Positions 38,912 through 60,891 of a stretch of 64,000 nucleotides of DNA are shown piece after piece. Under the pieces are notes generated by a model. That model had not been told where the DNA came from, ran no database searches, and saw only the letters and a program-made list of their open reading frames with translations. This stretch comes from Candidatus Saccharimonadales bacterium (lineage in GTDB: Bacteria > Patescibacteriota > Saccharimonadia > Saccharimonadales > UBA4665), in contig DATKGQ010000019.1 of the NCBI GenBank assembly GCA_035510715.1, forward strand, positions 15,153 through 79,152, in the 5' to 3' direction. The translations under genes and the position numbers were made by a program. The first letter of the stretch is position 1. Each line of letters begins with the position of its first letter.

Positions 38912-40669
38912 TCACGAGCTCTTTTTTATATCAATTGTAATCTTACTGGCGTTTTTGGGGGCAGTACTAACCCAGAACGGACTGTAATGGACATTCACGC
39001 TTGTGACGCCGGGATTAGCGCCGATAATAGTTCTGACCTCACCGGCCTTTTTCCCTTCAATTTGTTTCTTTAAGTTGGCCAGATTAAATTTAGGCCCGAT
39101 CGTAGCCGTTTCCGGGAAAGTGGCCTGGGCAGTGGTGGCCGCTTGGTTAACGATCGTGAAGTTCAAATTAGTCAGACCATAATTAATAATCGACTGATTG
39201 GCGGTATTAATTTGTTTGTTAATGGCACTATCGACGATTGTAGCCAAATAACTGCTTTTAACACCGAACATTGAGTAGGTGGTAGCCTCGGTAACAGTAA
39301 CCGAAGTAGCCTGGTCGCCGACATTGGCGCTTGTTGTAATAGTTGGTTGACCAGCTACGAATGAACCTGGGATAGTTAACAATTCGGCTTGTTGCAAACT
39401 GGTAGTAAGCGCTGATTTTATTGAAGAAGTATCGACTGAGCTTAATTGTTTTTCGGCATTATTAATGTCGGTCTGTGATACTACTTGGACGATATTGTCG
39501 GTACCGCCGCTGGCTGAGCCAGTAGCGGAGACGTCACTACGCCCGTTAACTTTAAAAGTACCACCTTGAATGTTGTATGCTGTTCCAGGATTTAGGGCAG
39601 CTATTTGGGTTGGGGCTGCTGAATATTCGAAACAATTATCAGCCTGGCTATATTTACCACCCTTAAATGTAGTAGTTTGTTGAGTAATATAAGTATACCC
39701 ATTCGCCGTAACTCCCGTACCTGCGGCGACAGGATTTGGCGCCTGTGTGGGTATAATTAAGCTTCCACAATTTTCATAGGCTGTCATTGAAATGCTGCCA
39801 TTAGCACTATTACCAGTATTCTTTTGTCCGGTTGTTGTCACCGATTGGGAAGTTGTTTTTGATGTTTGTTGGATCTGGGCCGGGACGGTCGAAGTACCGG
39901 TATTAACTGCGGTGGCCGTGGAATCAAGCGTTAGCGTAAAAGTATTATTTAGGCTGCTGGTCTTGGTATAAATGGTAACTGTCGCCTTGGGGAGAATCGA
40001 GTTGGCCAGTATAAAGCCGACCACCAGCACAATAATCAGCAGGAAACCAAGGATCAGCCGCACCCGGAATTTCTCAAAATTAGGTACTTTCAGTTTTTTA
40101 TCGGGTTTCTCGGACTTGGCTTCTTTTTCTTTATCTTCATCAGCCTCTTCTTCATCGCTATTGTCAATTTCGATCGCGGCATCTTCCGGAGCTGCTCTCG
40201 GAATTGGCAGGGGCGCCAGTTCCGGCATAATTTTTTTAGCTTCTTCAACCGGTTCTTTATCAGACAACCCGGCTAATACACCAATCGGCTGGTCGGCAGC
40301 CGACTTGGTATCAAAATCTTTGGCATCGTCTTCGCTGGCGTCAATATAATCATGACCCGTTGATCCCAAGTCTTCTTCCATACCTTCGGGTATTGCCGGT
40401 TTCGATTGCAGGGTCCTGGCGACATGCAATCCGGCTAAGCCGGCTAATGGCAGTAAACTGGTCTCAGAAGTAATTAAGACTACTTGTTTTTTGGCCGAGT
40501 CGGCAGCTTTTTTTAGTAATTTCATATTGACCGAACTCTGCAGCATAGTGGCACGCTTGGGCAATACTACGGCCACTAACTTGGATTCAGACGAGCTGAC
40601 TTTATCGATAATACTGGTTATCTCATCGTCAATGTCAATATAGACAGTGTCTTTTTGGGATGGTTTCAT
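38912..40669 (-). CDS. Bitopic membrane protein of unknown function, translationally coupled to ftsA
   Basis: 585 aa. About 95-aa N-terminal globular region, acidic linker, TM segment LILGFLLIIVLVVGFILA, and about 360-aa T/S/N/G-rich ectodomain. 4-nt overlap with the ftsA-like gene stop. Confidence 0.6.
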   Translation of the reverse strand: MKPSQKDTVYIDIDDEITSIIDKVSSSESKLVAVVLPKRATMLQSSVNMKLLKKAADSAKKQVVLITSETSLLPLAGLAGLHVARTLQSKPAIPEGMEEDLGSTGHDYIDASEDDAKDFDTKSAADQPIGVLAGLSDKEPVEEAKKIMPELAPLPIPRAAPEDAAIEIDNSDEEEADEDKEKEAKSEKPDKKLKVPNFEKFRVRLILGFLLIIVLVVGFILANSILPKATVTIYTKTSSLNNTFTLTLDSTATAVNTGTSTVPAQIQQTSKTTSQSVTTTGQKNTGNSANGSISMTAYENCGSLIIPTQAPNPVAAGTGVTANGYTYITQQTTTFKGGKYSQADNCFEYSAAPTQIAALNPGTAYNIQGGTFKVNGRSDVSATGSASGGTDNIVQVVSQTDINNAEKQLSSVDTSSIKSALTTSLQQAELLTIPGSFVAGQPTITTSANVGDQATSVTVTEATTYSMFGVKSSYLATIVDSAINKQINTANQSIINYGLTNLNFTIVNQAATTAQATFPETATIGPKFNLANLKKQIEGKKAGEVRTIIGANPGVTSVNVHYSPFWVSTAPKNASKITIDIKKSS

Positions 40670-42021
40670 ATCTTTAACATCCTGTCCAGTTTCTCGCGGA
40701 TGGAATCAGTCGGGGCATTACCGGCTTGTTGCAGAGTGTCAATACCGACTCTCAGCAACCCCATAGCCGTAATGAAAGTGTGGTCGGTAACATGGCCGGT
40801 TTTGTCAACAATGCCGACTACCTGGTCGGGTTGGATATGCTTGACAATCGGCTTTTTGGTAAACGGCAGTTCTTTATGCCACTGGGATTCCTGGAGTTCA
40901 TCCATCAGCATATCCAGGCTGGAGCCGCCGCCGCATAACAAAATGTGGTTGGGCAGGTGGTCGAGCCGGTTGAATTCGCCCAGCGCCAGTTCGACGCCGT
41001 CAATCCAGACGTCAAGAGTTTTTTGCAGGGCTTTCTCAACTTCCGGAATTTTACTCTGCGGCAAGTGATTCATGCCAAGGTCAAGCTTGTAATCTTCGGC
41101 TTGCCCAAACTCGACACCCAGATCCCGTTCAACCGAACGGGTATAGGCGCGGCCGCCGATACCGAACATTTTGGTGCCTTGGACGCCGCCTTCGTCAATT
41201 ACCGCGATATCCGTCGTACCGCCGCCGACATCCATCAGTATGGCGCTCATCGTGGCGTTAGGATCATTACCGATAACCGAGCGGGCCACGGCAAACGGTT
41301 CAGCGGCGATAGCCAGCAAATCAAGATCAAGTTCGTTGGCGGTTTTCTCCAGTGCGCCGAGATGAATCAGCGGCGCATAAGCCGTATAGAGCTGGACCAG
41401 CACCTCTTTGCCCTGGAAACCGATCGGGTTAGTGACTTTATAACTGTCAATATCAATACTGACGATAGCGCTGTTGACCAGCCGGACGCCAATATCTTTG
41501 CCGCCCAGTTCAATCATTACCTGCTGCTTGGCTGCCGCTTCGGCTCTTTCCTGGACGATATGAATAATACGTTCGACTTCGGCGATATCCATCGGTTTTT
41601 CGGAAACCTTGCGTCTGAAACGGACCGTGGTGGTTGTGCCCTTGACCAGTTCGCCGGCAATGCCGATGATCGCCGGACGGGCTGATACGCCGGCCTCAGT
41701 CTCAGCCTGATTGAGAGCTTTGTCGCAGTTTTCAACCACGCTGGCGATATCCGAAATCGCCCCGGCCTGCATGTCGCTCAAAGACTGGTGGGAGCGTCCG
41801 ACACCGATAATTTCAGCTTTGTCATTATCAACAATCTTGGCAATCAGCGCCTTGATAAATTCAGTGCCGATATCGAGCGCCACAATATACTGGTTCTTGT
41901 CCGATTTATTCTTGGAACGGATAGTATGTAACCCTTTATTGGCATTGGAAGCGGCTTGTCGGGCTCCTTTGGCAGTTTTATCGGCCAAAGATTTACCCAT
42001 TTTTTTAAATTTGGGAAGCAT
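40666..42021 (-). CDS. ftsA: Actin-like ATPase, FtsA-like cell division protein
   Basis: IVALDIGTEFIKALIA (phosphate 1), MDVGGGTTDIAVI (phosphate 2), LCGGGSSL (adenosine motif). 451 aa with a basic N-terminal extension. Confidence 0.7.
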   Translation of the reverse strand: MLPKFKKMGKSLADKTAKGARQAASNANKGLHTIRSKNKSDKNQYIVALDIGTEFIKALIAKIVDNDKAEIIGVGRSHQSLSDMQAGAISDIASVVENCDKALNQAETEAGVSARPAIIGIAGELVKGTTTTVRFRRKVSEKPMDIAEVERIIHIVQERAEAAAKQQVMIELGGKDIGVRLVNSAIVSIDIDSYKVTNPIGFQGKEVLVQLYTAYAPLIHLGALEKTANELDLDLLAIAAEPFAVARSVIGNDPNATMSAILMDVGGGTTDIAVIDEGGVQGTKMFGIGGRAYTRSVERDLGVEFGQAEDYKLDLGMNHLPQSKIPEVEKALQKTLDVWIDGVELALGEFNRLDHLPNHILLCGGGSSLDMLMDELQESQWHKELPFTKKPIVKHIQPDQVVGIVDKTGHVTDHTFITAMGLLRVGIDTLQQAGNAPTDSIREKLDRMLKI

Positions 42022-48531: not shown

Positions 48532-49494
48532 TTACTGATAGCGCATTTGTTCATCACTGCGCTCAATCCGGCGCCGCAGACTGAACAGTTCATAACGTTG
48601 TCCGAGCCAAAATGAAATCAGCAGCAGCGGCAACATGACAACCGCCGGCCACCAAATTACTTTGGTAACTGTTTGGACCGGTGACGTGGTTGTCGCTAAT
48701 TGGGTTTTCGTGCCGTTGGCTAGACCGACTAATTGCAGAAAGGCCGTTTCACCGTTCTTGTCTGTCGCTTGGATTGTAATAGTATAGGTGCCGGCATCCT
48801 TATAAGTATGGGTAAGCGTGACATTCCCCTGGCTGGCTTCGCTAAGCAGCTGCCGCTGGCCGCCGTCACCCCAATCTATACTCAGCGCGTAGGGCGTCGT
48901 ACCGCCGTTAATAATTATCGGCCAGCTGATTTGTTGATTCGGATTGGCCCCCTGCTTGGCATATATGCTGGTCAGCGACAAACTTATGCCGAAGGCGGCC
49001 AATTGCGGGTTATTGTAGCTGACAGTTACGGAGTTGGATACCGGACCAGCCTGGCCGAGGTTGTCATAGTCGTCAGCCGTCAGCACATTCTGGTTATAAA
49101 AAAGTGTTACTTGCAGCGAAAAGCTGCCACCGGCGCACATTGTCGAACCAATAAAGGTGTTATTCGAAAATACTTTTATCAACAAACCATTCAGACAGAG
49201 GCCGGCAACGGTAATCGGTTGAGACGTAAAGGTTTGTCCGTTAGTCGGTGTTGTTATCGTGGCTGGTTGGCTCGGCGGCGGACCAGAGACAGTACCCTCC
49301 AGGCCGATTGAGCCGTTTTGGGGGTTTTGCGGCGCAGTCGCCGCTGCAGCCAAAGCACCAGAAGATAAGATTAATATTATACCTAGTAAAATACCAGCAA
49401 TATAGCGACAGATTTTACTGCCGAAGAGTTTTTTCCATAACAGATCATAAAAGACTTTTGAACGTGTGCGCACAACTAACCTAAAGTATAGCAC
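48532..49494 (-). CDS. Surface protein with signal/anchor, Ig-like domain, PKD domain and C-terminal TM anchor
   Basis: IDWGDGGQ....THTYKDAGTYTITIQATDKNG is the PKD signature. ITTPTNGQTFTSQPITVAG...GSFSLQV is Big/Ig-like. C-terminal helix VIWWPAVVMLPLLLISFWL followed by a basic tail. Confidence 0.7.
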   Translation of the reverse strand: MLYFRLVVRTRSKVFYDLLWKKLFGSKICRYIAGILLGIILILSSGALAAAATAPQNPQNGSIGLEGTVSGPPPSQPATITTPTNGQTFTSQPITVAGLCLNGLLIKVFSNNTFIGSTMCAGGSFSLQVTLFYNQNVLTADDYDNLGQAGPVSNSVTVSYNNPQLAAFGISLSLTSIYAKQGANPNQQISWPIIINGGTTPYALSIDWGDGGQRQLLSEASQGNVTLTHTYKDAGTYTITIQATDKNGETAFLQLVGLANGTKTQLATTTSPVQTVTKVIWWPAVVMLPLLLISFWLGQRYELFSLRRRIERSDEQMRYQ

Positions 49495-49550
49495 CTAAAA
49501 GCATAGGCACTTTTTCCCTAGCCGCAAAAAACATTTGTACCTTGGTGTAA

Positions 49551-50627
49551 TTAAGACCGGAATCGGATTTTATGAATCAGCCAGGACACGGCGTATAGCA
49601 CTGCACCCAGTACCACCAAAACGATGATCAAGAACCAGTACGGCAAGTACCAGAAAGTCGTGGTTGCCAGGATCTGCTGTGTCGGGTTGCCGTTCAAGCC
49701 GTAATAGACAGCCAATTCGGCGGTGTAACGGCCAGGCCCCAGTTTCGGGTTCTCACAGACAATCTGACTGGACTTCATCCCATTCGGGCCGGTAATTTGC
49801 TTACTTCCAACCTTAATACAGGCTTCAAAGCGCCTGGTTTGGCCAATTAGGGCCAGCGAATCATTGGGGTTTGCGCTGGTAATTTCGCGGACTACTTTGC
49901 CATGGAAATTCTTAAGCAGAATGCTGCCGGATGGTTGTTCGGCAACATTGCCTTCATTGTCCAGTAAATAGGCTAACTCTTTCGGCTCCGACGTAAAGAA
50001 CCAATTTATAAATTGTCCGGTTTGGTCATCGGCGCTAGGCACAAATGCGCCATACTGGACAAGACGCATCTGTTCGGTTGTCTTGCCGGGGACAGTCACA
50101 AAGATTAAGCTGGCACTCGATGCGGCCACGCCGAGATTGCCCTTGCCGCTAATACTTTGGGCGGCATATTCAACCGCGCTGTAGTAACTGCCTGCCCCCT
50201 GGTTAGCCGGTATGACGATGGTAAAAGGAATACTTGTGGATGATGAGGCGGCAACAGTCACAGTCTTGGGGATAGTAATAAATGGCTTGATTGACCAGGC
50301 TGTTTGCGGGGCGTTGGGCGCAATTATCAGTACCGGAGCACCGCTTTTATTGGCGGCCTTAAAATCAACAATCTTAACGACTACTGTCAAAGCCTGGGTT
50401 GAGCTCAGATCAGACAGATAAAGCGTGCCTGACTGCTGTTGGCCGGCATTAATCGTGAAGTCTTCCCTGGGGGTGATACCAAGCCCGTTAGATTGGGCGC
50501 TGGCGGTTAATGGTAAGAGCGTCAGCAATAACAGAATGGTGCTCATTACTCCGGTAATCAGAAGTTTTGCTAGTTGGAATGGACGCTTGGGGTAACTATT
50601 ACGGAACATTATACAAAATTCTATCAT
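49551..50627 (-). CDS. DUF916/DUF3324-like cell-surface protein (signal peptide, C-terminal TM anchor)
   Basis: Signal peptide ending LTASA-QS. ITPREDFTINAGQQQSGTLYLSDLS...VVVKIVDF and TIVIPANQGAGSYYSAVEY resemble DUF916 strands. C-terminal WFLIIVLVVLGAVLYAVSWL followed by HKIRFRS. Its start lies 1 nt after the upstream gene's stop. Confidence 0.6.
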   Translation of the reverse strand: MIEFCIMFRNSYPKRPFQLAKLLITGVMSTILLLLTLLPLTASAQSNGLGITPREDFTINAGQQQSGTLYLSDLSSTQALTVVVKIVDFKAANKSGAPVLIIAPNAPQTAWSIKPFITIPKTVTVAASSSTSIPFTIVIPANQGAGSYYSAVEYAAQSISGKGNLGVAASSASLIFVTVPGKTTEQMRLVQYGAFVPSADDQTGQFINWFFTSEPKELAYLLDNEGNVAEQPSGSILLKNFHGKVVREITSANPNDSLALIGQTRRFEACIKVGSKQITGPNGMKSSQIVCENPKLGPGRYTAELAVYYGLNGNPTQQILATTTFWYLPYWFLIIVLVVLGAVLYAVSWLIHKIRFRS

Positions 50628-50628
50628 T

Positions 50629-51660
50629 TTAGAAGCTTGCCGTACAGATATATGTTAGTGTCGTGTCGTAAATGCCGACGGTTTGTGACGAGGATATATT
50701 AACAATGTAGCTGACAGTCAGTTTCGCCAGATTTGTCGGACCAGGCGAATAAGCAACTAAATCGCCGGAGTTAAACTGGTACTCGTTGGACACGTCATAG
50801 GCTGTAGCCAGCATGGTTGAGCCGCCGGCCGGATCATTGCCGATTACCGGGTTGGTATTAGCCCGGAGATTGAGGCCGAATTGCGAAGTGCCGATAGTAT
50901 TTGCCGTTTGCGAAGCAAGATTTTTGATAACGTAACTACCCGAGGTCATGGTTGTACCGTTGACTGTTATAACAACACCCGAATTAGCATTGGTACCGAC
51001 TTCCATCATTGATGTCGCGGCCGAAGTTTTAAGTGAGCTGAAATCCCCGAATTGGATAAAATAGCCGCTGGCGGTTGAACAGTTACCGGGAATAGTCAGT
51101 CCGGCACAAAAGTCAAGAATCGGCGGCACCACGGTATTGATACTCACTCCCGTGGAAGTGGCTGATGCTACCGCGCCATAATCCGTATAGGGGCCTGTCC
51201 CGTCAAATGTGGGGAAAGTCGAGATACGGACAAAAAAAGTTTGCACCGGATTTGACGGATTAGCCATATTGCTAAAAATATACTGTACCTGTTCGGAGTG
51301 GCCCGGAGCCGGCGGACGCTCCAAAAGTATCATATTGCTATCCTGCTGATAGATTACAAAGCCCGTTTCGCCGCTTTGCTCTGCTAAAACGCCATTCGAG
51401 GCGTCAAGACCGGCCGGCGAATCGCAGGGTTCAATTACCAGCGGCATGGTACAAAACAAAAAACTGATCGAGCCAACATTGGTATTATCAGGCAGCGTAA
51501 ACGTAAAAGCATAGTCATTAACTGCCGATGGTACCGGACTACTGATCTCCAGGCTGCGGAAGTTTAATGCGGCGGCCCGGACTAACACCGGTGATGACAG
51601 GCTGATACCAATCATTACCGCCAGCAAACATTCTGCAAATGCATATTTTATCTTAGGCAT
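50629..51660 (-). CDS. Secreted beta-rich surface protein, paralog family member P3
   Basis: Signal peptide. Shares FTFTLPDNTNVGSISFLFCTMPL...C.SPAGLDAS, TFFVRIS, QFGLNLRAN and the C-terminal GIYDTTLTYICTASF with the 409-aa neighbour. Confidence 0.7.
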   Translation of the reverse strand: MPKIKYAFAECLLAVMIGISLSSPVLVRAAALNFRSLEISSPVPSAVNDYAFTFTLPDNTNVGSISFLFCTMPLVIEPCDSPAGLDASNGVLAEQSGETGFVIYQQDSNMILLERPPAPGHSEQVQYIFSNMANPSNPVQTFFVRISTFPTFDGTGPYTDYGAVASATSTGVSINTVVPPILDFCAGLTIPGNCSTASGYFIQFGDFSSLKTSAATSMMEVGTNANSGVVITVNGTTMTSGSYVIKNLASQTANTIGTSQFGLNLRANTNPVIGNDPAGGSTMLATAYDVSNEYQFNSGDLVAYSPGPTNLAKLTVSYIVNISSSQTVGIYDTTLTYICTASF

Positions 51661-51701
51661 TACTTAATACTTTACTATGCTTTAGTGAATGTTTTGAAGA
51701 A

Positions 51702-52931
51702 CTAATAGGTTGGAACAGCAATATAGGTGATTGTAGTGGTATAGATACCGGCCGGCGTAGCGTAGGCGATGTTAGCCATATATCGGACTGAACCGGTATC
51801 GCAGATAATGATGCCGGTTGATGACGAAATAATTTTAGGATTTGTGACGCTGGAAGTATCAAAAGCAAAATAGGCCGTACCCCCGGACGTAATCGTTCCG
51901 GCACCCTGGGAATAGTTAACCGGCGAAGAGCTGGGAGCTAAGTAGGCAAAACTGTAACCGCTGCCAGATTCGGTATCGCTGCTATCAAGCGCCAGGCCGA
52001 ATTGGGGAATACCTGGGGTACTATTGGCAGCCGTCGTACCGATAGCGGTAATGTTGTTGGTGCCGTTAGCCAGCGTTTTGCCGGAATATTCAATAACCAG
52101 CCCGTGCGTAGCATTAGTGCTAACCCGGAAGTAAGAGTGGGCGGAATAGGTAATAAGCGGACTCAAAACGCCATTGCTATCGCCAAGGGTCAGCGCTCCG
52201 GTATCGCCAAAGGGAGAACAATTACCAGCTGGCGAGGTAACAGTCGTGCCGACTGAGAAAGCCAACTCTTCCTGGACTTTAGCCGTAATATTTACTTGTG
52301 TGGCAGTCGAGCTGGCTACCGTACCCTGATCTACCGGAGTTGAAAAGGCATTATCAGAATATAGTGTAATCCTAACAAAAAATGTAGAGTTATCGGTTGT
52401 CGGGTTAGTAATATAATCTGTTGAAAGTCCGCCGAATGATATTGCCACCGCCGTTGATATATTTGTCTCGTCCCCCGGCGTTGTTCGGCTAACTTTAATG
52501 TCGCTAGTAGACGCGCTGCTTATAACAAATGGCGAACCGCCGGTGTCAGTCCAGCCGGTTTGAGATTGTACAGCAAGAACAGTGCTGGCGTTTAAGCCGG
52601 TCGGCGCGATGCAGGATGTGCCCGCTAAAGGAGTCGTGCAGTACAGAAAATCAATCGAACCGATATTTCCGGTTTGGGGCAAAATAAATGAGAACGTTTC
52701 GCCGGTCTCAGCTCCGTTACCGCCGCTGCCGGCAGCAGCCGGATTACCAGCCATGTCAGTAGTGATCGTACCATTGGCGGAGCTAGTAACCGACAAACTT
52801 CGCTGAATAAGTGCAGCCGGATAGGCGCTGACAAGCTGGACAGGTAAAAATTCCGTGGCAATCATAGCCACAAAAAATATGCCAATAAAACCGTACACCG
52901 CACGGACAATATTAGGAAATGATTTTTTCAT
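51702..52931 (-). CDS. Secreted beta-rich surface protein, paralog family member P2
   Basis: Signal peptide (VSA-YP). FSFILPQTGNIGSIDFLYCTTPL...CIAPTGLNAS, TFFVRIT, QFGLAL, C-terminal PAGIYTTTITYIAVPTY. Confidence 0.7.
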   Translation of the reverse strand: MKKSFPNIVRAVYGFIGIFFVAMIATEFLPVQLVSAYPAALIQRSLSVTSSANGTITTDMAGNPAAAGSGGNGAETGETFSFILPQTGNIGSIDFLYCTTPLAGTSCIAPTGLNASTVLAVQSQTGWTDTGGSPFVISSASTSDIKVSRTTPGDETNISTAVAISFGGLSTDYITNPTTDNSTFFVRITLYSDNAFSTPVDQGTVASSTATQVNITAKVQEELAFSVGTTVTSPAGNCSPFGDTGALTLGDSNGVLSPLITYSAHSYFRVSTNATHGLVIEYSGKTLANGTNNITAIGTTAANSTPGIPQFGLALDSSDTESGSGYSFAYLAPSSSPVNYSQGAGTITSGGTAYFAFDTSSVTNPKIISSSTGIIICDTGSVRYMANIAYATPAGIYTTTITYIAVPTY

Positions 52932-53028
52932 CTAGTTTATATAGTTTTTATTTTTTTACTACAAATTAGTTGTAGCATAAGCATCAAGCTTGTACAATAA
53001 GTTATCCACAGCCAGCACTATTTAGCAA

Positions 53029-53790
53029 TTAAAATGTCGGTACCGCCACAACGTCTACGTAGCCGGCCGTATTGGATATGTTACCGTACATCCCGGCCGG
53101 AGTTAGTGATGAAATGTTCTCTATAATTGACATCGTATATTGTGTTTCACCGGAGCTTGAATTACTGTAAGCAATGTTTGTGCCGGGCACAAACATAAAC
53201 TCGTTCTGATAATTATAATTAGGCTCGACTGCGCCGAAACTGAACGGCGGAGAACCGGCTGGTAACTGCAGCGGAACAGCCCCAATCGACGGGCTGGTAT
53301 TAGCGGTAAGGTTAACGCCAAATTGTTCCGTTCCCGGAAATGAATACGTCGGCGTCGTCAGGGGATTAAGGGGATGACCGCCCGGACCATCGGTCGGAGA
53401 ACCGCCGGAAAGCATAACAATGTAACCGGTACTGAGGTAATTCTCAACAGTAAAAGTTGTTGACGCATACGACACCGCAGAAGTGCTTAAATAACCCAGG
53501 TCGAATACCCCGCCAACCACATTAACCGCCAGTTCCGGAGTGTCTGTTGTATTAAAACCGTTTTGGGCCTGATAAGCACTCCCCTTGCTGTTGCCAACAC
53601 CAAGTTCGCCGATCGAAACTTGAGCCTGATAGCTGTTCGAAGTTGCCTGTAAGGCACTGCCGCTGCCGACAAAGACTTCATTAATCGAATAATTGGTCGA
53701 CGTATACTGCGCCAGAACCGTCGGCGAAATAATGAACAGGCCGGCCAAAATAAAACTTAAGACCGCCAAAATATAGTGCCATTTTTTCAT
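53029..53790 (-). CDS. Secreted beta-rich surface protein, short family member P1
   Basis: Signal peptide (VLA-QY). QFGVNLTAN and the C-terminal TPAGMYGNISNTAGYVDVVAVPTF are shared with P2 and P3. 253 aa, first gene of the operon. Confidence 0.65.
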   Translation of the reverse strand: MKKWHYILAVLSFILAGLFIISPTVLAQYTSTNYSINEVFVGSGSALQATSNSYQAQVSIGELGVGNSKGSAYQAQNGFNTTDTPELAVNVVGGVFDLGYLSTSAVSYASTTFTVENYLSTGYIVMLSGGSPTDGPGGHPLNPLTTPTYSFPGTEQFGVNLTANTSPSIGAVPLQLPAGSPPFSFGAVEPNYNYQNEFMFVPGTNIAYSNSSSGETQYTMSIIENISSLTPAGMYGNISNTAGYVDVVAVPTF

Positions 53791-53893
53791 GGTAACTTAA
53801 TTGTGCAATAAGCACAGTGAAAAAACAATCTGTTTACGCTTTTTCTTACTTCTTGTTATTATTAGTATTAAGTAAAGACTGGATGGGTATGAT

Positions 53894-54922
53894 ATGGAGC
53901 AAGGCGAGCCGGTAGAGGACAACGAGAACTCACTCGAAGGGTCCAGTACGGTTGTGGAATCCAGCGGCAATAACGCGGTACCGGTCAGTCAGCCGGAAAA
54001 TACCTCGGTTGAGCCGGTAGCTCCCCAACCGGAACCAATTGCCTCGCCCCCTGCCTCGCCGGCGGCAGCGCCCAAGCACCATGCCTTTAATTTCTTGAGG
54101 CATCTGAATATCTTTTTACTGTGTTTCATTTTGGTTTTTATTATCGCCGTGGTTATCGCGATTGTGGCCATTACTAAAAACCGCAACTCCACTTCCACGT
54201 CAACGCCAAGCGCTTCAACTTTAACCCAAAGCCAATTGGAAAAAATTGTCAATAACAGCAATACGACTTCAGTCGGCAGCCCCAATCAGGTTCTTAATAT
54301 TTCGGCCAGTACGATTTTTGGTGAACAGGTATTGATGCGCCAGGATCTGGATGTGGCAGGTAGTATCAAAATCGGCGGCAGTTTAGAATTACCGTCCCTC
54401 AGCGTACTTGGCACCGGTACGTTTGGGTTAATCCAAGCCGATAAATTAACGGTCTCCGGCGACAGCACCTTACAGGGTAATGTCAGTATCTCTCAGGCCT
54501 TGACTGTGGCCGGCACGACAAACTTCAGCGGCGCTGTTTCGGCCAACCAGTTGACAGTGCAATCACTGCAGCTTAACGGCGATATCGTTATCAATCACCA
54601 TATTGATACCGGCGGCCTAACACCGGCACGAACACCCGGGAATGCCTTGGGCAACGGCGGCACGGTATCAGTTAACGGCTCGGACACGGCCGGCGCAATT
54701 ACGATCGGTACCGGCAGCTCGCCGGCGCCAGGTTGTTTTGTCACTATCACTTTCGGCAAGGCTTTTAATAACACCCCAGACGTGGTTGTTACGCCGGTCG
54801 GAGTGGCAGCTAGCGGTATAGCATACTATATTACCAGATCGGCCACGGACTTTAGCATCTGCTCCAGCAGCACGCCGCCGGCTGGACAATCTTTCGGTTT
54901 CGATTACCTCGCAATTGATTAG
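53894..54922 (+). CDS. Membrane-anchored surface protein with beta-helix-like repeats and a lectin-like C-terminal domain
   Basis: Pro-rich N-terminus. TM segment IFLLCFILVFIIAVVIAIVAI. Repetitive region reading LDVAGSIKIGGSLEL...LTVSGDSTLQGNVSISQALTVAGTTNFSGAVSANQLTV. C-terminal TITFGKAFNNTPDVVVTPVG...YYITRSATDFSI resembles an H-type lectin fold pattern. Confidence 0.6.
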   Translation: MEQGEPVEDNENSLEGSSTVVESSGNNAVPVSQPENTSVEPVAPQPEPIASPPASPAAAPKHHAFNFLRHLNIFLLCFILVFIIAVVIAIVAITKNRNSTSTSTPSASTLTQSQLEKIVNNSNTTSVGSPNQVLNISASTIFGEQVLMRQDLDVAGSIKIGGSLELPSLSVLGTGTFGLIQADKLTVSGDSTLQGNVSISQALTVAGTTNFSGAVSANQLTVQSLQLNGDIVINHHIDTGGLTPARTPGNALGNGGTVSVNGSDTAGAITIGTGSSPAPGCFVTITFGKAFNNTPDVVVTPVGVAASGIAYYITRSATDFSICSSSTPPAGQSFGFDYLAID

Positions 54923-54960: not shown

Positions 54961-55272
54961 TTAAATATCGAGAAAAACTGTTACCTGGTTGGCTTTAACA
55001 TGCATAATGCCCCGGGCAATCCTGATACGCAGCGTATCATCAACAGTGTGGATTACTAGCTCGCACGGATTAAGCAGGGTAATAAAATTATGATGCCTGG
55101 GCAGGATGTCAAAAGGTCCGGTATTGTTAACGGCCGAGATACTCAGCGCGTCCCGGTCAAAGTAGGTCTGAAAAGGGGAATGGACTTTGACATGCAACTG
55201 TTCAACGGCTGACGGTTGGTTTAAAATAACCGTTTGATTAGAGCCGGGCCGGTCGGTCGGTAAAGTTGCCAT
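54961..55272 (-). CDS. atpC: F-type ATPase epsilon subunit (short, beta-sandwich only)
   Basis: 103 aa. FDRDALSISAVNNTGPFDILPRHHNFITLL matches the epsilon N-terminal domain (G.fgiLp.H.p....L). No C-terminal helical hairpin. Confidence 0.75.
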   Translation of the reverse strand: MATLPTDRPGSNQTVILNQPSAVEQLHVKVHSPFQTYFDRDALSISAVNNTGPFDILPRHHNFITLLNPCELVIHTVDDTLRIRIARGIMHVKANQVTVFLDI

Positions 55273-55274
55273 AA

Positions 55275-57426
<2,152 letters not shown>

Positions 57427-57430
<4 letters not shown>

Positions 57431-58902
57431 TTGGTTGCCTCGCTGGCAGCCGGTTCCGCGGCGGTCGGTGCCGGTTTTGTCTTAACGGCAATCAGACAAA
57501 GGGATTTAAGCTTATCACGGACGATGCTAAAATCTTTTTCACTTTTGATTTCGTTAACTAAAGCCGGCGCATTCTTTTTCAACAGCGCAACATCAACTTG
57601 CTCATTGTTGCCAAGGTTAAGAATGACATCGAGCATCAGCTGTTGGCACAGTAAGTTATAGGTCTCTCCCGGCCGTTGGTTAAACATCGAGTACAGTAAT
57701 TTGCCACGGATTAAATCCTGACGGGTTTGAAGGGCCAGTTCAGATCCGAAATGAGCATATTCGGAAGCTTGTTCATAGACCGCGAGAGACTGCTGGACCA
57801 ATTGGTTTTGTTTCTTTTGGCGGCTGTTCTGGCCGCGGCCGCCGACGCGGGTGACACTTAAACCGACATTGATTGCCGGACGGACGGTATCGCGGAAGAC
57901 TTTCATGTCCAATATCCACTGGCCGTCAGTAATTGACATCACGTTCGTCGGCAAATAAGCGGTAATGTCGCCGGCTGGCGTCAACACCAGCGGTATGGCC
58001 GTCAGAGAATTGTGATTATCGGCCAGTTTGCCGGCCCGCTCCAATAAACTGGAGTGCGCATAGAACATATCGCCGGGATACGAGTCACGGCCGGGACTGG
58101 CTCCGGAAAGTAAGGAAATTTCACGGTACACCTGGGCATGGCTGGTCAAATCATCGTAGATGACCAACACGTCACGGTTGCACTGCTGCCACAAGTACTC
58201 ACCCAAGGCACAACCGACATACGGCGCCAAGTAGCTTATGGTTAATGATTCGGCCATAGTTGACACGACGACAATCGAGTTTTTCATCGCGTTGTTGACT
58301 TGTAACTGATCAATCAACGTATCGGCGTCAGTACGCCGCTTGGCAATCAGTACATAAATAACGACTACATCCGTGCTGCGCTGGTTGATGGCCAGTTGCG
58401 TCGCCAGCGTACTCTTACCCGACTTGCTGTCGCCGAGAATGGCGATCCTTTGGCCGCGGACTAACGGGAATAAGACATCAACCAAACCGATACCGGTTTC
58501 AAGCTGGTTATCAAGAATTTCGCGTTTATAAAGCATCGGCGCGGCGGCAAAAATCGGCCAGACGGTGTCGGCAGCAATCGGCCCCTTGCCATCAAGCGGA
58601 TCGCCGGTTACCGAAACTACCCGGCCGATATAATCTTTGCCTACTTTCGTGACCAGCGAATCATGCTGTTCAACCACAACCATGCCGGTAGAAAGTTCCG
58701 TTGAACCCAAATGCAGGACAATCACGTGGTCTTCCAGAATCCGGTGTACAAAGCCCTTGCTGCCGTCTTCAAACATTACCAGGGCTCTTAAATTTATCGG
58801 TTGCAAGCCCTTAACCCTGATTAAAAAATGATCAACGGCGATAATTTCACCGACCGACCGGCCGGCAGCGACAAGTTTCTCAAAATGACGGCTGTTGCTC
58901 AT
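57427..58902 (-). CDS. atpA: F-type ATPase alpha subunit (divergent)
   Basis: Walker [12 protein letters not shown] (canonical is GDRQTGKT), [41 protein letters not shown]. Confidence 0.9.
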
Positions 58903-58919: not shown

Positions 58920-59432
58920 CTATTGGCCCTTCAAGGCGCTAATTAATTGATCGCGTTGGTCGATAAAATGGCGGCGCAAGGAAAAATCATACTGTTTACT
59001 GGGCGTGCGGATAATACAGCCGGCCGCGATTCTTGGTTCCAGGCCGATTTTCAGCAGCAAATAGGGGTGGATATTAGTCCGCAGCCAGATAATTATCTTA
59101 ACCGTAAAAGCCGCGGTCGGGTCGGTAGCAAAACTTATATGCAGGACCGGCGCATTTTGTTTAACGGATAGCAGGAAAGCCGCGGCAGCCCGGCGGTCGG
59201 CTGTCTGCAACAGATTAAAATGATTCATGGCTACGAATTCGTCAAGTAAACGGCTGGTCCGGGGAAGTTTCATGCTGCTGCCCGGAGTCCGGATTGCCGC
59301 CTGCATCAAAAAATCATCCAGTCCTTCGACTTCCCTTATCAGACGGCTAACGTCTGCTGTGCCAACCACTTGGACGGGGAGTTGAATCTGGGCATTGGAC
59401 TCACCGTTAGGAGCCATGAATAATATCCTCAA
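58920..59432 (-). CDS. atpH: F-type ATPase delta (OSCP) subunit
   Basis: Position between b and alpha. C-terminal GLEPRIAAGCIIRTPSKQYDFSLRRHF matches the delta pattern (d.sliGG..i..g....D.S). The start is uncertain. Confidence 0.65.
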   Translation of the reverse strand: MRILFMAPNGESNAQIQLPVQVVGTADVSRLIREVEGLDDFLMQAAIRTPGSSMKLPRTSRLLDEFVAMNHFNLLQTADRRAAAAFLLSVKQNAPVLHISFATDPTAAFTVKIIIWLRTNIHPYLLLKIGLEPRIAAGCIIRTPSKQYDFSLRRHFIDQRDQLISALKGQ

Positions 59433-60045
59433 TAATCGATTTTTTGTTAGTTTCCAGATCGCTCAAGATAAATTCCAGCTGGTCGCTCAGGTCAATTTGA
59501 TTGCCGATAGCCGCCAGAACATAGTGATTGATAATTTCAGCCATATTGTCCTCAAACTGCCGGATCAGACGGGCTTTTTCGTCAATGAATTCTTTCTGGA
59601 CCTGCACGCTCAGGGTCCGCCGCTGTTCATCAACAGCGGCGTTGGTCTTCTGGATCGAATCCATGGCCAGCTGCTTGGCGTCATTGATGGACTGCTCATA
59701 TTTGGCAAATTCTTCTTGCAGCTTCCGGGTAATTTCCTGCTTCATGTAATCGTTAAGCTGCGCGGTTGTCAGGCGTAAATCCTGCTGCAGGAACATGGCA
59801 TTCTCACCGATAATTTTTTCAAAATGAAGCCGGCCGCGGTTTCTTAATTCTTCGCGGAATTGGTCATTGAAAATATGCTCGACGTCGCGTTCAGCAGCTT
59901 GGGCATAGGGTACTTCGGGCTTGGTTTTTAGGCGGGCAAGACTGCCCAGCCGCAATGCTAACCAGACAAAAGCCGCCAGCACCAGTATCAGTATGCTTAT
60001 GATTATGATCAGCCACCAAATGGTCATGGATTCCCCACCAGTCAA
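59407..60045 (-). CDS. atpF: F-type ATPase b-like subunit (N-terminal TM plus long coiled coil)
   Basis: 212 aa. TM segment IWWLIIIISILILVLAAFVWLAL followed by a charged helical region. Position immediately upstream of delta. Sequence similarity is weak, so the call rests on architecture and synteny. Confidence 0.55.
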   Translation of the reverse strand: MTGGESMTIWWLIIIISILILVLAAFVWLALRLGSLARLKTKPEVPYAQAAERDVEHIFNDQFREELRNRGRLHFEKIIGENAMFLQQDLRLTTAQLNDYMKQEITRKLQEEFAKYEQSINDAKQLAMDSIQKTNAAVDEQRRTLSVQVQKEFIDEKARLIRQFEDNMAEIINHYVLAAIGNQIDLSDQLEFILSDLETNKKSIIEDIIHGS

Positions 60046-60057
60046 ATATTGCTTACG

Positions 60058-60891
60058 TTAAACCCTCAGAAGTAAATATACCGCAAATAACCCGATAATA
60101 AAAACTATCAGACTGGTCAAAGTCACTTGGATCAGGCTCCGGATAATCGAACGCCTGGAAAGCGGGTTACGGCCAATTGATATAATGCTGCTTCTGATAC
60201 CGGCATGTAACATGCTGCCGGCAATAACCGCGCTAATGGCCAAAATGACCAGGCTGATGTAGACACGGCTTTCGCTGACCGGGCGGTTAGCGACAGTTTG
60301 CCCGGCAGTAATCAAAAAATTCGGTAAATCCGGCCGGGTATTCTGCATCAGCGGATTATGGGCAACATTTATGCTGACATCTATCAGGCCGAGCTGGACA
60401 GTTGATGAACCGCCCGAATTCTTGATAATTGTTGAGCCCAGACTGTCAGTAGTACCTGAGAAGTTTGACAGGGCTTTTCCCAGAACAATCTGATCACTTG
60501 AGTTCGCCTTCATGCCGACGCCATCGATCGATGAAATTGTAATGTAGTCGCCACTGTGGATCGAGCCGTTCTGACTGCTGACTAGGACCTGGTAATTACC
60601 AGTTGCGGCAACATAAGTCTGGTAAGCTGAAGATGAAGTTGACAGCGATACGGCAGCAGTATTGGGATTAACAACCACGCCGAACATTTTGGTGGCATTG
60701 GCTTGAGTCAAGGCTTCCACGTTCGATGAATTGCCGGGTTGAAGTTCAACAATCAAACCGACTTCCAGATTAGAAGAAGCACCGTAGCTTTGAACGACAG
60801 ACTGGGCCTTAGCCATCGGCAGAGTCAACCCAAAACAACAAAGTATGACAACAAGGGCGAGCCAAGTGTAAAAATGCTTAGCCATGATCAT
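60058..60891 (-). CDS. Secreted/anchored protein with a C-terminal c-subunit-like two-helix hairpin, unknown function
   Basis: 277 aa. Signal peptide (PMAKA-QS). About 175-aa S/T/N/G-rich ectodomain. C-terminal ISLVILAISAVIAGSMLHAGIRSSIISIGRNPLSRRSIIRSLIQVTLTSLIVFIIGLFAVYLLL. Lies 12 nt upstream of atpF. Confidence 0.65.
   Translation of the reverse strand: MIMAKHFYTWLALVVILCCFGLTLPMAKAQSVVQSYGASSNLEVGLIVELQPGNSSNVEALTQANATKMFGVVVNPNTAAVSLSTSSSAYQTYVAATGNYQVLVSSQNGSIHSGDYITISSIDGVGMKANSSDQIVLGKALSNFSGTTDSLGSTIIKNSGGSSTVQLGLIDVSINVAHNPLMQNTRPDLPNFLITAGQTVANRPVSESRVYISLVILAISAVIAGSMLHAGIRSSIISIGRNPLSRRSIIRSLIQVTLTSLIVFIIGLFAVYLLLRV

Follow-up and report, generated by a model that had tools for sequence, protein, structure and literature searches.

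The window analysed here, a stretch of 64,000 nucleotides from a Candidatus Saccharimonadales bacterium, carries on its minus strand a gene (60058..60891) for a 277-residue membrane protein, hereafter X277, which was characterized through its open reading frame and translation, 2053 homologs, a family alignment and AlphaFold2 modelling. The translation agrees with the sequence quoted in an earlier interpretation made from the DNA letters alone (the sequence-only reading). The family consensus begins at the third residue, M3; judged from the sequence, the corresponding codon, ATG 60885, is probably the start of the gene. At the other end, the TAA stop codon lies 12 nt ahead of TTG 60045, the first possible start of the next open reading frame, which encodes a protein resembling the b subunit of the peripheral stalk. 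The sequence-only reading had given this 12-nt distance as the spacing between the two genes, and it holds when counted from TTG 60045. However, the consensus N-terminus of the b-like family is MTxWW; therefore, translation probably starts at ATG 60027, and the real gap is about 30 nt.

X277 is predicted to be composed of a signal peptide, an extracellular domain and a C-terminal membrane hairpin, all of which had been proposed from the sequence and are borne out by the full-length AlphaFold2 model (mean pLDDT 82). The signal peptide (aa 1-29; 60805..60891, minus strand) consists of a predicted helix at residues 4-21 and an A-K-A/Q cleavage motif, and the cleavage site is conserved as A-x-A/Q in the family alignment, with A29 present in 94 and Q30 in 110 of 114 sequences. 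It is followed by a beta-sandwich domain (aa 30-180; 60352..60804, minus strand), the strands of which are modelled with confidence, and by a short helix at residues 191-201. The hairpin (aa 207-277; 60061..60273, minus strand) is modelled as two helices spanning residues 207-241 and 243-276. With Foldseek, the ectodomain matches phage capsid cement or decoration proteins in the PDB (E 2.5e-4) and, in BFVD, phage "preneck appendage" or tail-associated proteins, with E-values as low as 1.7e-9; the Pfam family Phage_cement gives a weak match to X277. Compared as a whole with Pfam and NCBIfam, X277 produced no meaningful match, and no other assigned function was found for the family.

The genes downstream of X277, all on the minus strand, encode the stalk and catalytic head of an F-type ATPase. 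The first of them (59407..60045) specifies a putative b-like peripheral-stalk protein, so named for its position and for its architecture of an N-terminal transmembrane helix and a long helix; it matched no Pfam, NCBIfam or PDB sequence, and comparison of its family profile with the PDB was uninformative. This gene is nonetheless conserved and colinear in 80 of 82 loci. Next comes a delta/OSCP-like gene (58920..59432; TIGR01145, E 2e-3), which probably starts at ATG 59417. Almost all of the best PDB matches to its family profile, with E-values between 5e-3 and 0.1, are OSCP or delta chains, and the C-terminal domain aligns in register. The remaining genes encode proteins resembling F1 alpha (57427..58902; PF00006, E 8e-70), gamma (56579..57430; PF00231, E 5e-25), beta (55275..56582; PF00006, E 4e-64) and epsilon (54961..55272; PF02823, E 4e-13 over residues 26-101 of 103). 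The operon thus reads X277, b-like, delta, alpha, gamma, beta, epsilon, and X277 does occupy the place of atpB/atpE, as the sequence-only reading had pointed out. The gene upstream of X277, 53 nt away, encodes an aminotransferase, and the operon contains no candidate for subunit a. An hmmsearch of the window and the 82 loci detected no c-subunit-like open reading frame within 10 kb; over the same distance, no gene for subunit a was found around the operon and no second alpha/beta pair in the 82 loci or the window. A look-up made through a gene at the edge of the window showed 10 kb of unrelated genes.

Measured against NCBIfam equivalog cut-offs, every F1 subunit falls short: alpha scores 408 bits with its best model (cut-off 554), beta 428 with TIGR01039 (463), gamma 70 with TIGR01146 (194), epsilon 41 (67) and delta 18 (57.5). 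These scores, together with the missing genes for subunits a and c, led to rejection of a canonical ATP synthase as the identity of the operon. In the beta-like translation, Walker A (GGAGVGKT), Walker B and the catalytic motif GER(I)RE are all intact, and the epsilon-like protein consists of the beta-sandwich domain alone, lacking the C-terminal helices. At the level of sequence, then, the F1 portion (alpha, beta, gamma and a short epsilon) is divergent yet intact in its catalytic motifs. N-ATPases ("alternate F1F0", atpDCQRBEFAG) were also considered, being likewise second F-type operons found besides a canonical one. N-ATPases retain both a and c, complete with the sites that bind ions, whereas the X277 operon has neither subunit, and this identity was rejected as well, the scores with TIGR03324, TIGR03305, TIGR03323 and TIGR03166 being far below their cut-offs.

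The most conserved part of X277 is found in the hairpin, the cytoplasmic loop of which (G240-R241-N242-P243-L244; 60160..60174, minus strand) aligns with subunit c's R-Q/N-P loop. Residues G240 to P243 are invariant in 259 of 259 family representatives and L244 is present in 251, while Y229, G231, R233, Q255, G267 and Y272 are nearly invariant across the family. The likeness of this loop to that of subunit c, noticed in the sequence-only reading, was upheld by hhalign, which matched it, in register, to residues R41-Q42-P43 of E. coli c, and the Arg and Lys residues flanking it fit a positive-inside pattern. The absence of the ion-binding carboxylate was likewise confirmed. Position 261, which lies 20 residues beyond R241 and corresponds to Asp61 of E. 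coli c, is hydrophobic (L, I, F, V or M) across all 259 representatives and acidic in none; the window protein carries Leu261, and both of its hairpin helices are free of Asp and Glu. With 2053 homologs, relatives encoded in 299 GTDB species genomes and an invariant GRNP motif, the hairpin is a genuine family feature rather than a product of chance.

Whether this hairpin descends from subunit c or merely resembles it was addressed by structure and by profile comparison. In topology the two are alike, each being a two-helix hairpin with its ends outside, a polar loop in the cytoplasm and a small-residue face on helix 1 (AtpE; PF00137/COG0636). A model of the hairpin alone (pLDDT 94) was compared with the PDB using Foldseek, and the best 50 matches listed were all F-type c subunits, most of them superposing with TM-scores of 0.75-0.88 and rmsd values of 1.1-1.9 Å. 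For a query of 73 residues, the corresponding E-values (0.06-1.4) are not significant in themselves. With the full-length model, c subunits were the only matches to the hairpin part. At the sequence level, the NCBIfam model "F0F1 ATP synthase subunit C" was matched by single hairpins in 8 of 29 cases in one set and 5 of 10 in another; these matches are marginal (E 4e-3 to 0.17, below thresholds), yet among 18,950 models this was the only one to recur. No ATP-synt_C match was obtained when 29 X277 hairpins were compared with Pfam, nor did the X277 hairpin profile retrieve any c subunit from PDB sequences at E<=10. The sequence-only reading had proposed a profile comparison with subunit c; made directly, it showed weak similarity that was not significant, hhalign of the X277 family with subunit c giving P 0.044 to 0.008 and aligning the loop alone.

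A clearer relationship emerged through a paralog lineage in which the loop reads A-R-Q-P-L (ARQPL). Profile-profile comparison of this lineage with subunit c yielded a probability of 89.9% and E 1.7e-6 for an alignment of 53 columns in register that covers both helices; in a control with 400 shuffles, the best score was 18, compared with 35 for the real alignment. In turn, X277 hairpins align with ARQPL hairpins at 98.4% and E 1e-14. When PDB sequences were searched by hmmsearch with the ARQPL hairpin profile, c subunits were the top matches, and two paralog clusters bear the JGI name "subunit c/K", an independent COG-based annotation. An alternative is that the hairpin is a convergent look-alike, since tight membrane hairpins superpose on subunit c and an R-N-P turn could arise independently. 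The weak direct profile comparison, the modest Foldseek E-values and the lack of a Pfam match are all in keeping with convergence. It is nevertheless considered improbable in view of the ARQPL alignment, the c subunits at the top of the ARQPL search, the COG-based naming, the sole recurrent NCBIfam match and a gene order that fits atpE-atpF-atpH-atpA-atpG-atpD-atpC. Of the two options offered by the sequence-only reading, a coincidental hairpin and a module derived from subunit c that was recruited, in the manner of the mycoplasma F1-like X0 ATPases, as a non-translocating partner of the F1 and stator genes, the latter is thus favoured by the c-like structure, the ARQPL link and the linkage to atp genes, although direct profile similarity remains weak. 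Homology of the X277 hairpin to F-type subunit c, with retention of the topology and the cytoplasmic R-N-P loop, is largely supported. X277 differs from subunit c in carrying Leu261 instead of the ion-binding carboxylate, in having no partner gene for subunit a, in its N-terminal fusion to a signal peptide and an extracellular beta-sandwich of about 150 residues, and in scoring below the Pfam and NCBIfam thresholds.

Comparison of related genomes showed that X277 and the b-like, delta, alpha, gamma, beta and epsilon genes are colinear, with short gaps, in all 82 loci, which represent 80 GTDB species, as far as each contig reaches. A stop codon lies between the X277 and b-like genes in those loci where the two look fused. 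One subclade has a b-like protein devoid of the transmembrane helix, which leaves X277 as the operon's sole membrane protein there. On the epsilon side, the operon adjoins a conserved surface-protein cluster (48532..54922), composed of a divergently transcribed gene for a transmembrane-anchored beta-helix protein (53894-54922, plus strand) and genes for five surface proteins, secreted or anchored (48532-53790, minus strand). Of the 55 species loci with enough sequence, 52 have these neighbours after epsilon. Searches of Pfam with the cluster proteins returned weak WxLIP_PGBD, PKD and bactofilin-like matches alone.

The constant linkage to atp genes that the sequence-only reading had raised for checking therefore holds without exception in the loci of 80 species, but it does not extend to distant paralogs. 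The ARQPL paralogs (loci L084, L090 and L091) head the same surface-protein cluster with no ATPase genes in between, and a second group of paralogs, distinguished by Glu224 (loci L087-L089), is encoded between an L21 gene and the gene for a giant transmembrane-anchored fibre protein, with no ATPase genes nearby. Thus, the family can function without an adjacent F1. These arrangements, along with the similarity of the ectodomain to phage appendage and cement domains, lend themselves to a different explanation, in which X277 is the base or anchor of the surface-protein or fibre cluster and is not an ATPase subunit, its adjacency to F1 genes reflecting inherited order or loose co-regulation. Such a role is judged unlikely. 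It does not readily accommodate the strict colinearity and short gaps across 80 species, the lack of any other membrane partner in the operon (and, in one subclade, of any other transmembrane protein), or the position of X277 in the atpE slot immediately upstream of the b-like gene. Moreover, the hairpin derives from the very subunit that docks gamma and epsilon, and its loop has been kept invariant.

The interpretation preferred here is that Saccharimonadales possess a second, non-respiratory F1-like ATPase in which X277 serves as the membrane subunit, and the evidence as a whole makes a reasonably good case for it. Three complete Saccharimonadales genomes were annotated by BlastKOALA with two sets of atpA/atpD/atpG and one set of atpB/atpE/atpF (PMC12592800, Table S5). 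Since some Saccharimonadales thus have a canonical a/b/c set of their own elsewhere, the X277 operon is taken to be a second, F1-like ATPase. In the sequence-only reading, a canonical atpB/atpE pair elsewhere had been regarded as speaking against a role for X277 in an ATPase; such a pair does exist in some members of the order (PMC12592800), yet it conforms to the two-enzyme pattern of mycoplasmas, and no other function is assigned to the X277 family. The same gene counts could also mean that the F1 and stator genes supply a spare or alternative head for a canonical Fo encoded elsewhere, with X277 uninvolved. This seems very unlikely, given that the operon brings its own b-like and delta-like stalk, that its F1 subunits have all diverged strongly from canonical models and that X277 equals the F1 genes themselves in conservation and in tightness of linkage. 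In addition, CAILAD01 bins contain alpha, beta, gamma and epsilon but lack a, b and c (PMC12592800, Table S5).

As the proposed membrane subunit of a second ATPase, X277 finds a close parallel in the F1-like X0 ATPases of mycoplasmas, comprising the Type 3 clusters MSC_0618-0624 and MMCAP2_0575-0581 (MIB-MIP) and the Type 2 G1-ATPase of M. mobile, which serves gliding (PMC12994834, PMC3369863). In both systems, divergent alpha, beta, gamma and epsilon subunits occur beside a canonical F1Fo (on the Saccharimonadales side, in the other genomes reported in PMC12592800), and the divergent F1 set is clustered with a non-Fo membrane protein and linked to surface machinery. One mycoplasma X0 subunit shares the architecture of X277, with a signal peptide and, at the C-terminus, a pair of transmembrane helices (PMC12994834, PMC3369863). 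Unlike the mycoplasma clusters, which include the 12-transmembrane-helix Protein 1 and the small cytoplasmic Protein 2 and lack homologs of b and delta, the X277 operon encodes no 12-transmembrane-helix protein, possesses a b-like gene and a delta/OSCP homolog, and retains the canonical atp gene order. The alpha- and beta-like proteins score 262, 380, 327 and 331 bits with the MSC_0619, MSC_0618, MMOB1660 and MMOB1670 models, the respective cut-offs of which are 520, 570, 600 and 850 bits. X277 displayed no sequence similarity to any of the NCBIfam models of the mycoplasma clusters. A non-respiratory F-type ATPase homolog with a beta subunit that clusters with Ca. Saccharimonadia has also been described, and passages of that paper propose for it a cell-surface role in symbiosis and not in energy conservation (PMC10066038). 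In the window and in 52 of 55 related loci, the operon adjoins a secreted-protein and fibre cluster instead of type IV pilus genes; the passages mention neither a membrane subunit like X277 nor an origin of one from subunit c (PMC10066038). The annotated parts of the window contain no type IV pilus genes. In the literature on Saccharibacteria combined with atpE/atpB or "F1-like", no paper describing the X277 subunit was found.

From these features, a working model of the complex can be drawn. The X277 hairpins would probably oligomerize in the manner of a c-ring, and by analogy with F1Fo, the invariant GRNPL loop may serve as the docking site for the foot of gamma and epsilon. The carboxylate and subunit a are both missing; therefore, the complex should be unable to translocate ions, and ATP hydrolysis by F1 would consequently be spent on rotation or conformational work. 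This work could be passed via the hairpins to the extracellular domains and from there to the adjacent cluster of surface proteins and fibres, much as gliding legs and MIB-MIP, both surface machines, are served by the F1-like X0 ATPases of mycoplasmas. In short, the machine probably spends ATP on mechanical work at the surface of the cell and pumps no ions. A consideration that weighs against X277 as an ATPase subunit is that, with no subunit a and, in one subclade, no transmembrane stator, a means of reacting torque within the membrane is hard to see. A bolder version of the model, tentative and rather doubtful, envisages an ATP-driven rotary motor in which a ring of c homologs devoid of ion binding, each bearing a phage-appendage-like ectodomain, carries the rotation produced by cytoplasmic F1 to the outside and so turns or cranks the adjacent fibre and adhesin cluster.

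In mycoplasmas, F1-like ATPases with no part in ATP synthesis function in gliding and antibody cleavage; such enzymes have also been noted in Omnitrophota and Saccharimonadia. To our knowledge, the membrane "X0" proteins of these enzymes have no recognizable relatives from which the coupling of the cytoplasmic motor to the outside of the cell could be deduced. X277, as a single small membrane partner with an anchor traceable to the c-ring subunit, a retained loop of the kind to which the central stalk binds, a lost ion site and a gained extracellular domain, provides a concrete and testable model of force transmission across the membrane. If the rotary motor were real, it would constitute a new class of surface motor and a tractable model for the "X0" role. 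Members of the family are encoded in no fewer than 299 species-level genomes, and genetic tools now exist for the phylum Saccharibacteria. On the preferred interpretation, many Saccharibacteria genomes scored as having a "nearly complete F-type ATPase" carry a non-respiratory machine of the X277 type; metabolic reconstructions that assume proton-coupled ATP synthesis in such genomes are therefore likely to be wrong.

Acidic residues do occur elsewhere in the hairpin of some family members: among the 259 representatives, Glu255 is found in 14, Asp or Glu at position 224 in 8, all of them divergent, and an acidic residue at position 260 in one. Position 224 lies 17 residues before R241, the same spacing that separates Ala24 from Arg41 in E. 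coli c. In work attributed to Miller, Oldenburg and Fillingame in 1990, the carboxylate of E. coli c could reportedly be moved from position 61 to position 24 with function retained. Together, these points might suggest that ions still cross the hairpin ring by way of a non-canonical site, either Gln255 or Glu255 or, in some lineages, Glu224, with no need for subunit a. This is regarded as highly improbable, for Ala224, Gln255 and Leu261 are the residues of the window protein and of most family members, no subunit-a-like protein is encoded nearby, and the Glu224 variants are precisely those unlinked to ATPase genes. As a separate observation, the paralog set with the ARQP loop carries a second A-[HR]-N-P-L motif, located in its ectodomain.

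Seven tightly packed genes on the minus strand of the window form one operon, as established by ORF calls and domain searches. The first encodes X277, a 277-aa protein (60058-60891) with a signal peptide, a beta-sandwich ectodomain, and a C-terminal two-helix hairpin. It is followed, on the same strand, by genes for a b-like protein of 212 aa with one N-terminal TM helix and then a long helix (59407-60045), a delta-like protein of 170 aa (58920-59432), alpha (57427-58902, 491 aa), gamma (56579-57430, 283 aa), beta (55275-56582, 435 aa), and an epsilon subunit reduced to its beta-sandwich (54961-55272, 103 aa). This order is exactly that of atpE-F-H-A-G-D-C. The upstream neighbor of X277, a class-V aminotransferase gene, lies just 53 nt away; thus, atpB, atpE, and atpI have no room. 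The sequence-only reading had described a helix 2 without Asp or Glu and 12 nt between X277 and the first possible b-like start, and both descriptions, together with the hairpin sequence it quoted, proved correct on re-reading. Judging from family consensus, translation probably begins at M3 in X277 and at the ATG at 60027 in the b-like gene.

The seven genes are colinear in two loci of X277 relatives from other genomes (L001 and L002, 48% identity) and in all 80 GTDB species loci, as far as the contigs run; among these loci, every case of a missing operon gene coincides with a contig end. Within 10 kb, neither a c-subunit-like ORF nor a second alpha/beta was found in L001, L002, the 80 GTDB species loci, or the window. 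In one subclade (L038, L040, L048, L063, and L065), whose loop reads GRNPM and which has Glu255, the b-like protein has no TM helix and is longer, and the X277 homolog is the operon's only membrane protein. The b-like protein of this subclade measures ~280-300 aa, has an apparently duplicated coiled coil, and starts MG(L/I)F....

The 2053 homologs of X277 are all unnamed or "hypothetical"; where an organism is given, it is Candidatus Saccharimonadales. Relatives are encoded in 299 GTDB species genomes, the best 80 being Saccharibacteria MAGs. Searched against 1.84 billion proteins, a profile of the hairpin alone matched 661 cluster representatives, with the hairpin at the extreme C-terminus in every full-length match among the best 150. 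G240-R241-N242-P243 is invariant (259/259 aligned representatives), and L244, R233, Y229, G231, Q255, G267, and Y272 are near-invariant. The AlphaFold2 model (pLDDT 82) comprises a signal-peptide helix, a beta-sandwich (residues 30-180), a short helix, and the long hairpin. The ectodomain resembles phage capsid cement/decoration proteins (PDB structure search, E 2.5e-4) as well as phage "preneck appendage" and tail-associated domains (BFVD, E down to 1.7e-9). It ends in a second A-[HR]-N-P-L motif (V-A-H-N-P-L, aa 176-181, window 60349-60366), in which N179 and P180 are invariant and which precedes the G-R-N-P-L loop by 61 residues; this motif may reflect either duplication or chance.

The proposal that the hairpin derives from subunit c was examined by profile comparison, in which the direct match was weak. 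Using hhalign, the X277 family and nine c subunits were aligned in the loop alone, in the correct register, with P of 0.03-0.044 for shallow alignments and 0.008 for 259 sequences; c subunits were absent among the Pfam and PDB sequence matches of the family profile. When the hairpin was modeled by itself (pLDDT 94), F-type c subunits made up 50/50 top PDB structure matches, most of them with TM-scores of 0.75-0.88, rmsd 1.1-1.9 A, and identity of 14-26%. In scans of single hairpins against 18,950 NCBIfam models, the sole recurrent match was NF005521, "F0F1 ATP synthase subunit C", with hits from 8 of 29 hairpins in one set and 5 of 10 in a second, divergent set (E down to 4e-3); in two of these sequences, nearly the entire hairpin aligned colinearly.

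A bridging lineage was found on the L084 contig, from a distant lineage, which encodes an X277 paralog with an A-R-Q-P-L loop; two clusters among its relatives are named "F0F1-type ATP synthase membrane subunit c/V-type subunit K" by JGI. Fourteen ARQPL hairpins matched a c-subunit alignment with 89.9% probability (E 1.7e-6), the 53 aligned columns taking in the loop and both helices; the c-subunit alignment, entered by hand, behaves as intended against the PDB. The score of 35 compares with at most 18 among 400 column-shuffled controls, and reversed controls gave P of 0.28-0.45. The best PDB sequence matches of these hairpins are c subunits (e.g., 1yce, E 4.9e-3), which account for seven of nine matches. 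The ARQPL hairpins in turn match X277 hairpins at 98.4% (E 1e-14), and the full-length paralog is 30% identical to X277. On account of the structure match, the NCBIfam scans, the ARQPL bridge, and the gene order, the X277 hairpin very probably descends from subunit c. At the position equivalent to Asp61 (R241+20 = L261), all 259 representatives carry a hydrophobic residue, and the hairpin has no accompanying subunit a; we therefore conclude that it is not a functional subunit c.

The F1 part is real but not canonical. As read from the translations, beta retains Walker A (GGAGVGKT), the catalytic GERIRE motif, and Walker B, and alpha carries the SVTR arginine-finger motif. Measured against NCBI curated equivalog cut-offs, the yardstick for canonical subunits, alpha scores 408 bits (cut-off 554), beta 428 (463), gamma 70 (194), and epsilon 41 (67). 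The subunits also miss the thresholds set for the "alternate F1F0" models and for the mycoplasma models MSC_0618/0619 and MMOB1660/1670. The top PDB matches of the 170-aa protein's profile (34 orthologs) are almost only OSCP/delta chains (E 5e-3 to 0.1), with its C-terminal domain in register, and by these matches it is a delta/OSCP homolog. The b-like gene is putatively named, from architecture and position. Epsilon has a ~23-residue N-terminal extension and no C-terminal helical domain. In bacterial F1Fo, that domain inhibits ATP hydrolysis; its absence is consistent with an enzyme running as a hydrolase.

By BlastKOALA, Ca. Saccharimonas aalborgensis, GWC2_44_17, and Ca. Mycosynbacter amalyticus possess two atpA/atpD/atpG sets and a single atpB/atpE/atpF set, TM7x and RAAC3 one of each, and the CAILAD01 bins alpha/beta/gamma/epsilon without a/b/c (PMC12592800, Table S5). 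A non-respiratory F-type ATPase homolog has been described whose beta groups with Saccharimonadia and whose alpha groups with mycoplasma types 2/3, and a homolog of this kind has already been noted in Saccharimonadia (PMC10066038). Given these counts and this homolog, the X277 operon most plausibly represents a second, F1-like ATPase. In most Saccharibacteria papers, such genes simply count as an F-type ATPase of "varied completeness" (PMC12592800, PMC8407418), and our literature search found no paper on the membrane subunit, its subunit-c origin, or the surface-cluster link. We file the operon as of the F1-like X0 kind, outside the mycoplasma families, because it lacks the 12-TM subunit that defines them, possesses, unlike them, delta and a b-like stalk, and falls short of the curated alpha/beta cut-offs.

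X277 has the topology of subunit c, exposing both ends outside and placing its basic loop, with the invariant GRNPL, on the cytoplasmic side. In F1Fo, the gamma/epsilon foot grips the cytoplasmic loop of subunit c. Helix 1 carries a small-residue stripe (213, 220, 224-226, 230-231, 234-235, and 238) and helix 2 the invariant G267, a pattern compatible with tight oligomeric packing. Ion translocation is very unlikely, as both the carboxylate and subunit a are missing. In the most economical model, ATP would be hydrolyzed by F1, and the central stalk would drive a putative X277 oligomer by rotation or cyclic push; the ectodomains would carry this movement outside the cell, acting on or organizing neighboring surface proteins. 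Such a model mirrors current thinking on how mycoplasma F1-like X0 enzymes act. Its weak points are the putative ring, the paralogs without an adjacent ATPase, and the membrane, where no stator is evident.

Of the 55 loci that extend far enough past epsilon (within L001 and L004-L078), 52 have the same downstream neighbors as the window: a TM-anchored beta-helix protein transcribed divergently (53894-54922, plus strand) and a run of five secreted/anchored proteins (48532-53790, minus strand). These give weak WxL-interacting-protein, PKD, and bactofilin-like signals, nothing stronger; the weak WxL-interacting-protein domain lies in one protein and the PKD domain in another. Three secreted proteins share a C-terminal motif, roughly ...Y.TT.TYI..P(T/S)(F/Y). 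In distant lineages, an ARQPL paralog heads the same cluster with no ATPase genes between (L084, 1981-2808 and 9749-10588; L090, 10001-10822; L091, 622-1425); thus, the main Saccharimonadales clade has six F1/stator genes between X277 and the surface cluster. In L084, two ARQPL paralogs flank the cluster.

In another divergent type (P0240, P0241, P0247, P0250, P0251, P0260, P0266, and P0267), helix 1 has Glu or Asp at position 224. This position, R241-17, has the same spacing as Ala24 from Arg41 in E. coli c; Ala24 is a site to which the essential carboxylate can be transferred and still work. The Glu224 paralogs (L087-L089) are flanked by the L21 gene and a gene for a giant TM-anchored fiber protein, not by ATPase genes; the fiber-like protein has a "TICLDxNNC" motif. 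Linkage to atp genes holds in L001, L002, and the 80 GTDB species loci and fails in distant paralogs, so that it is not universal at the family's edges. Taken together, the paralogs and the position of the surface cluster link X277 to the surface proteins no less strongly than to the ATPase. The annotated parts of the window showed no clear type IV pilus genes; at 38912-42021, a 451-aa protein with an FtsA/PilM-like actin fold precedes one of 585 aa that has no Pfam match.
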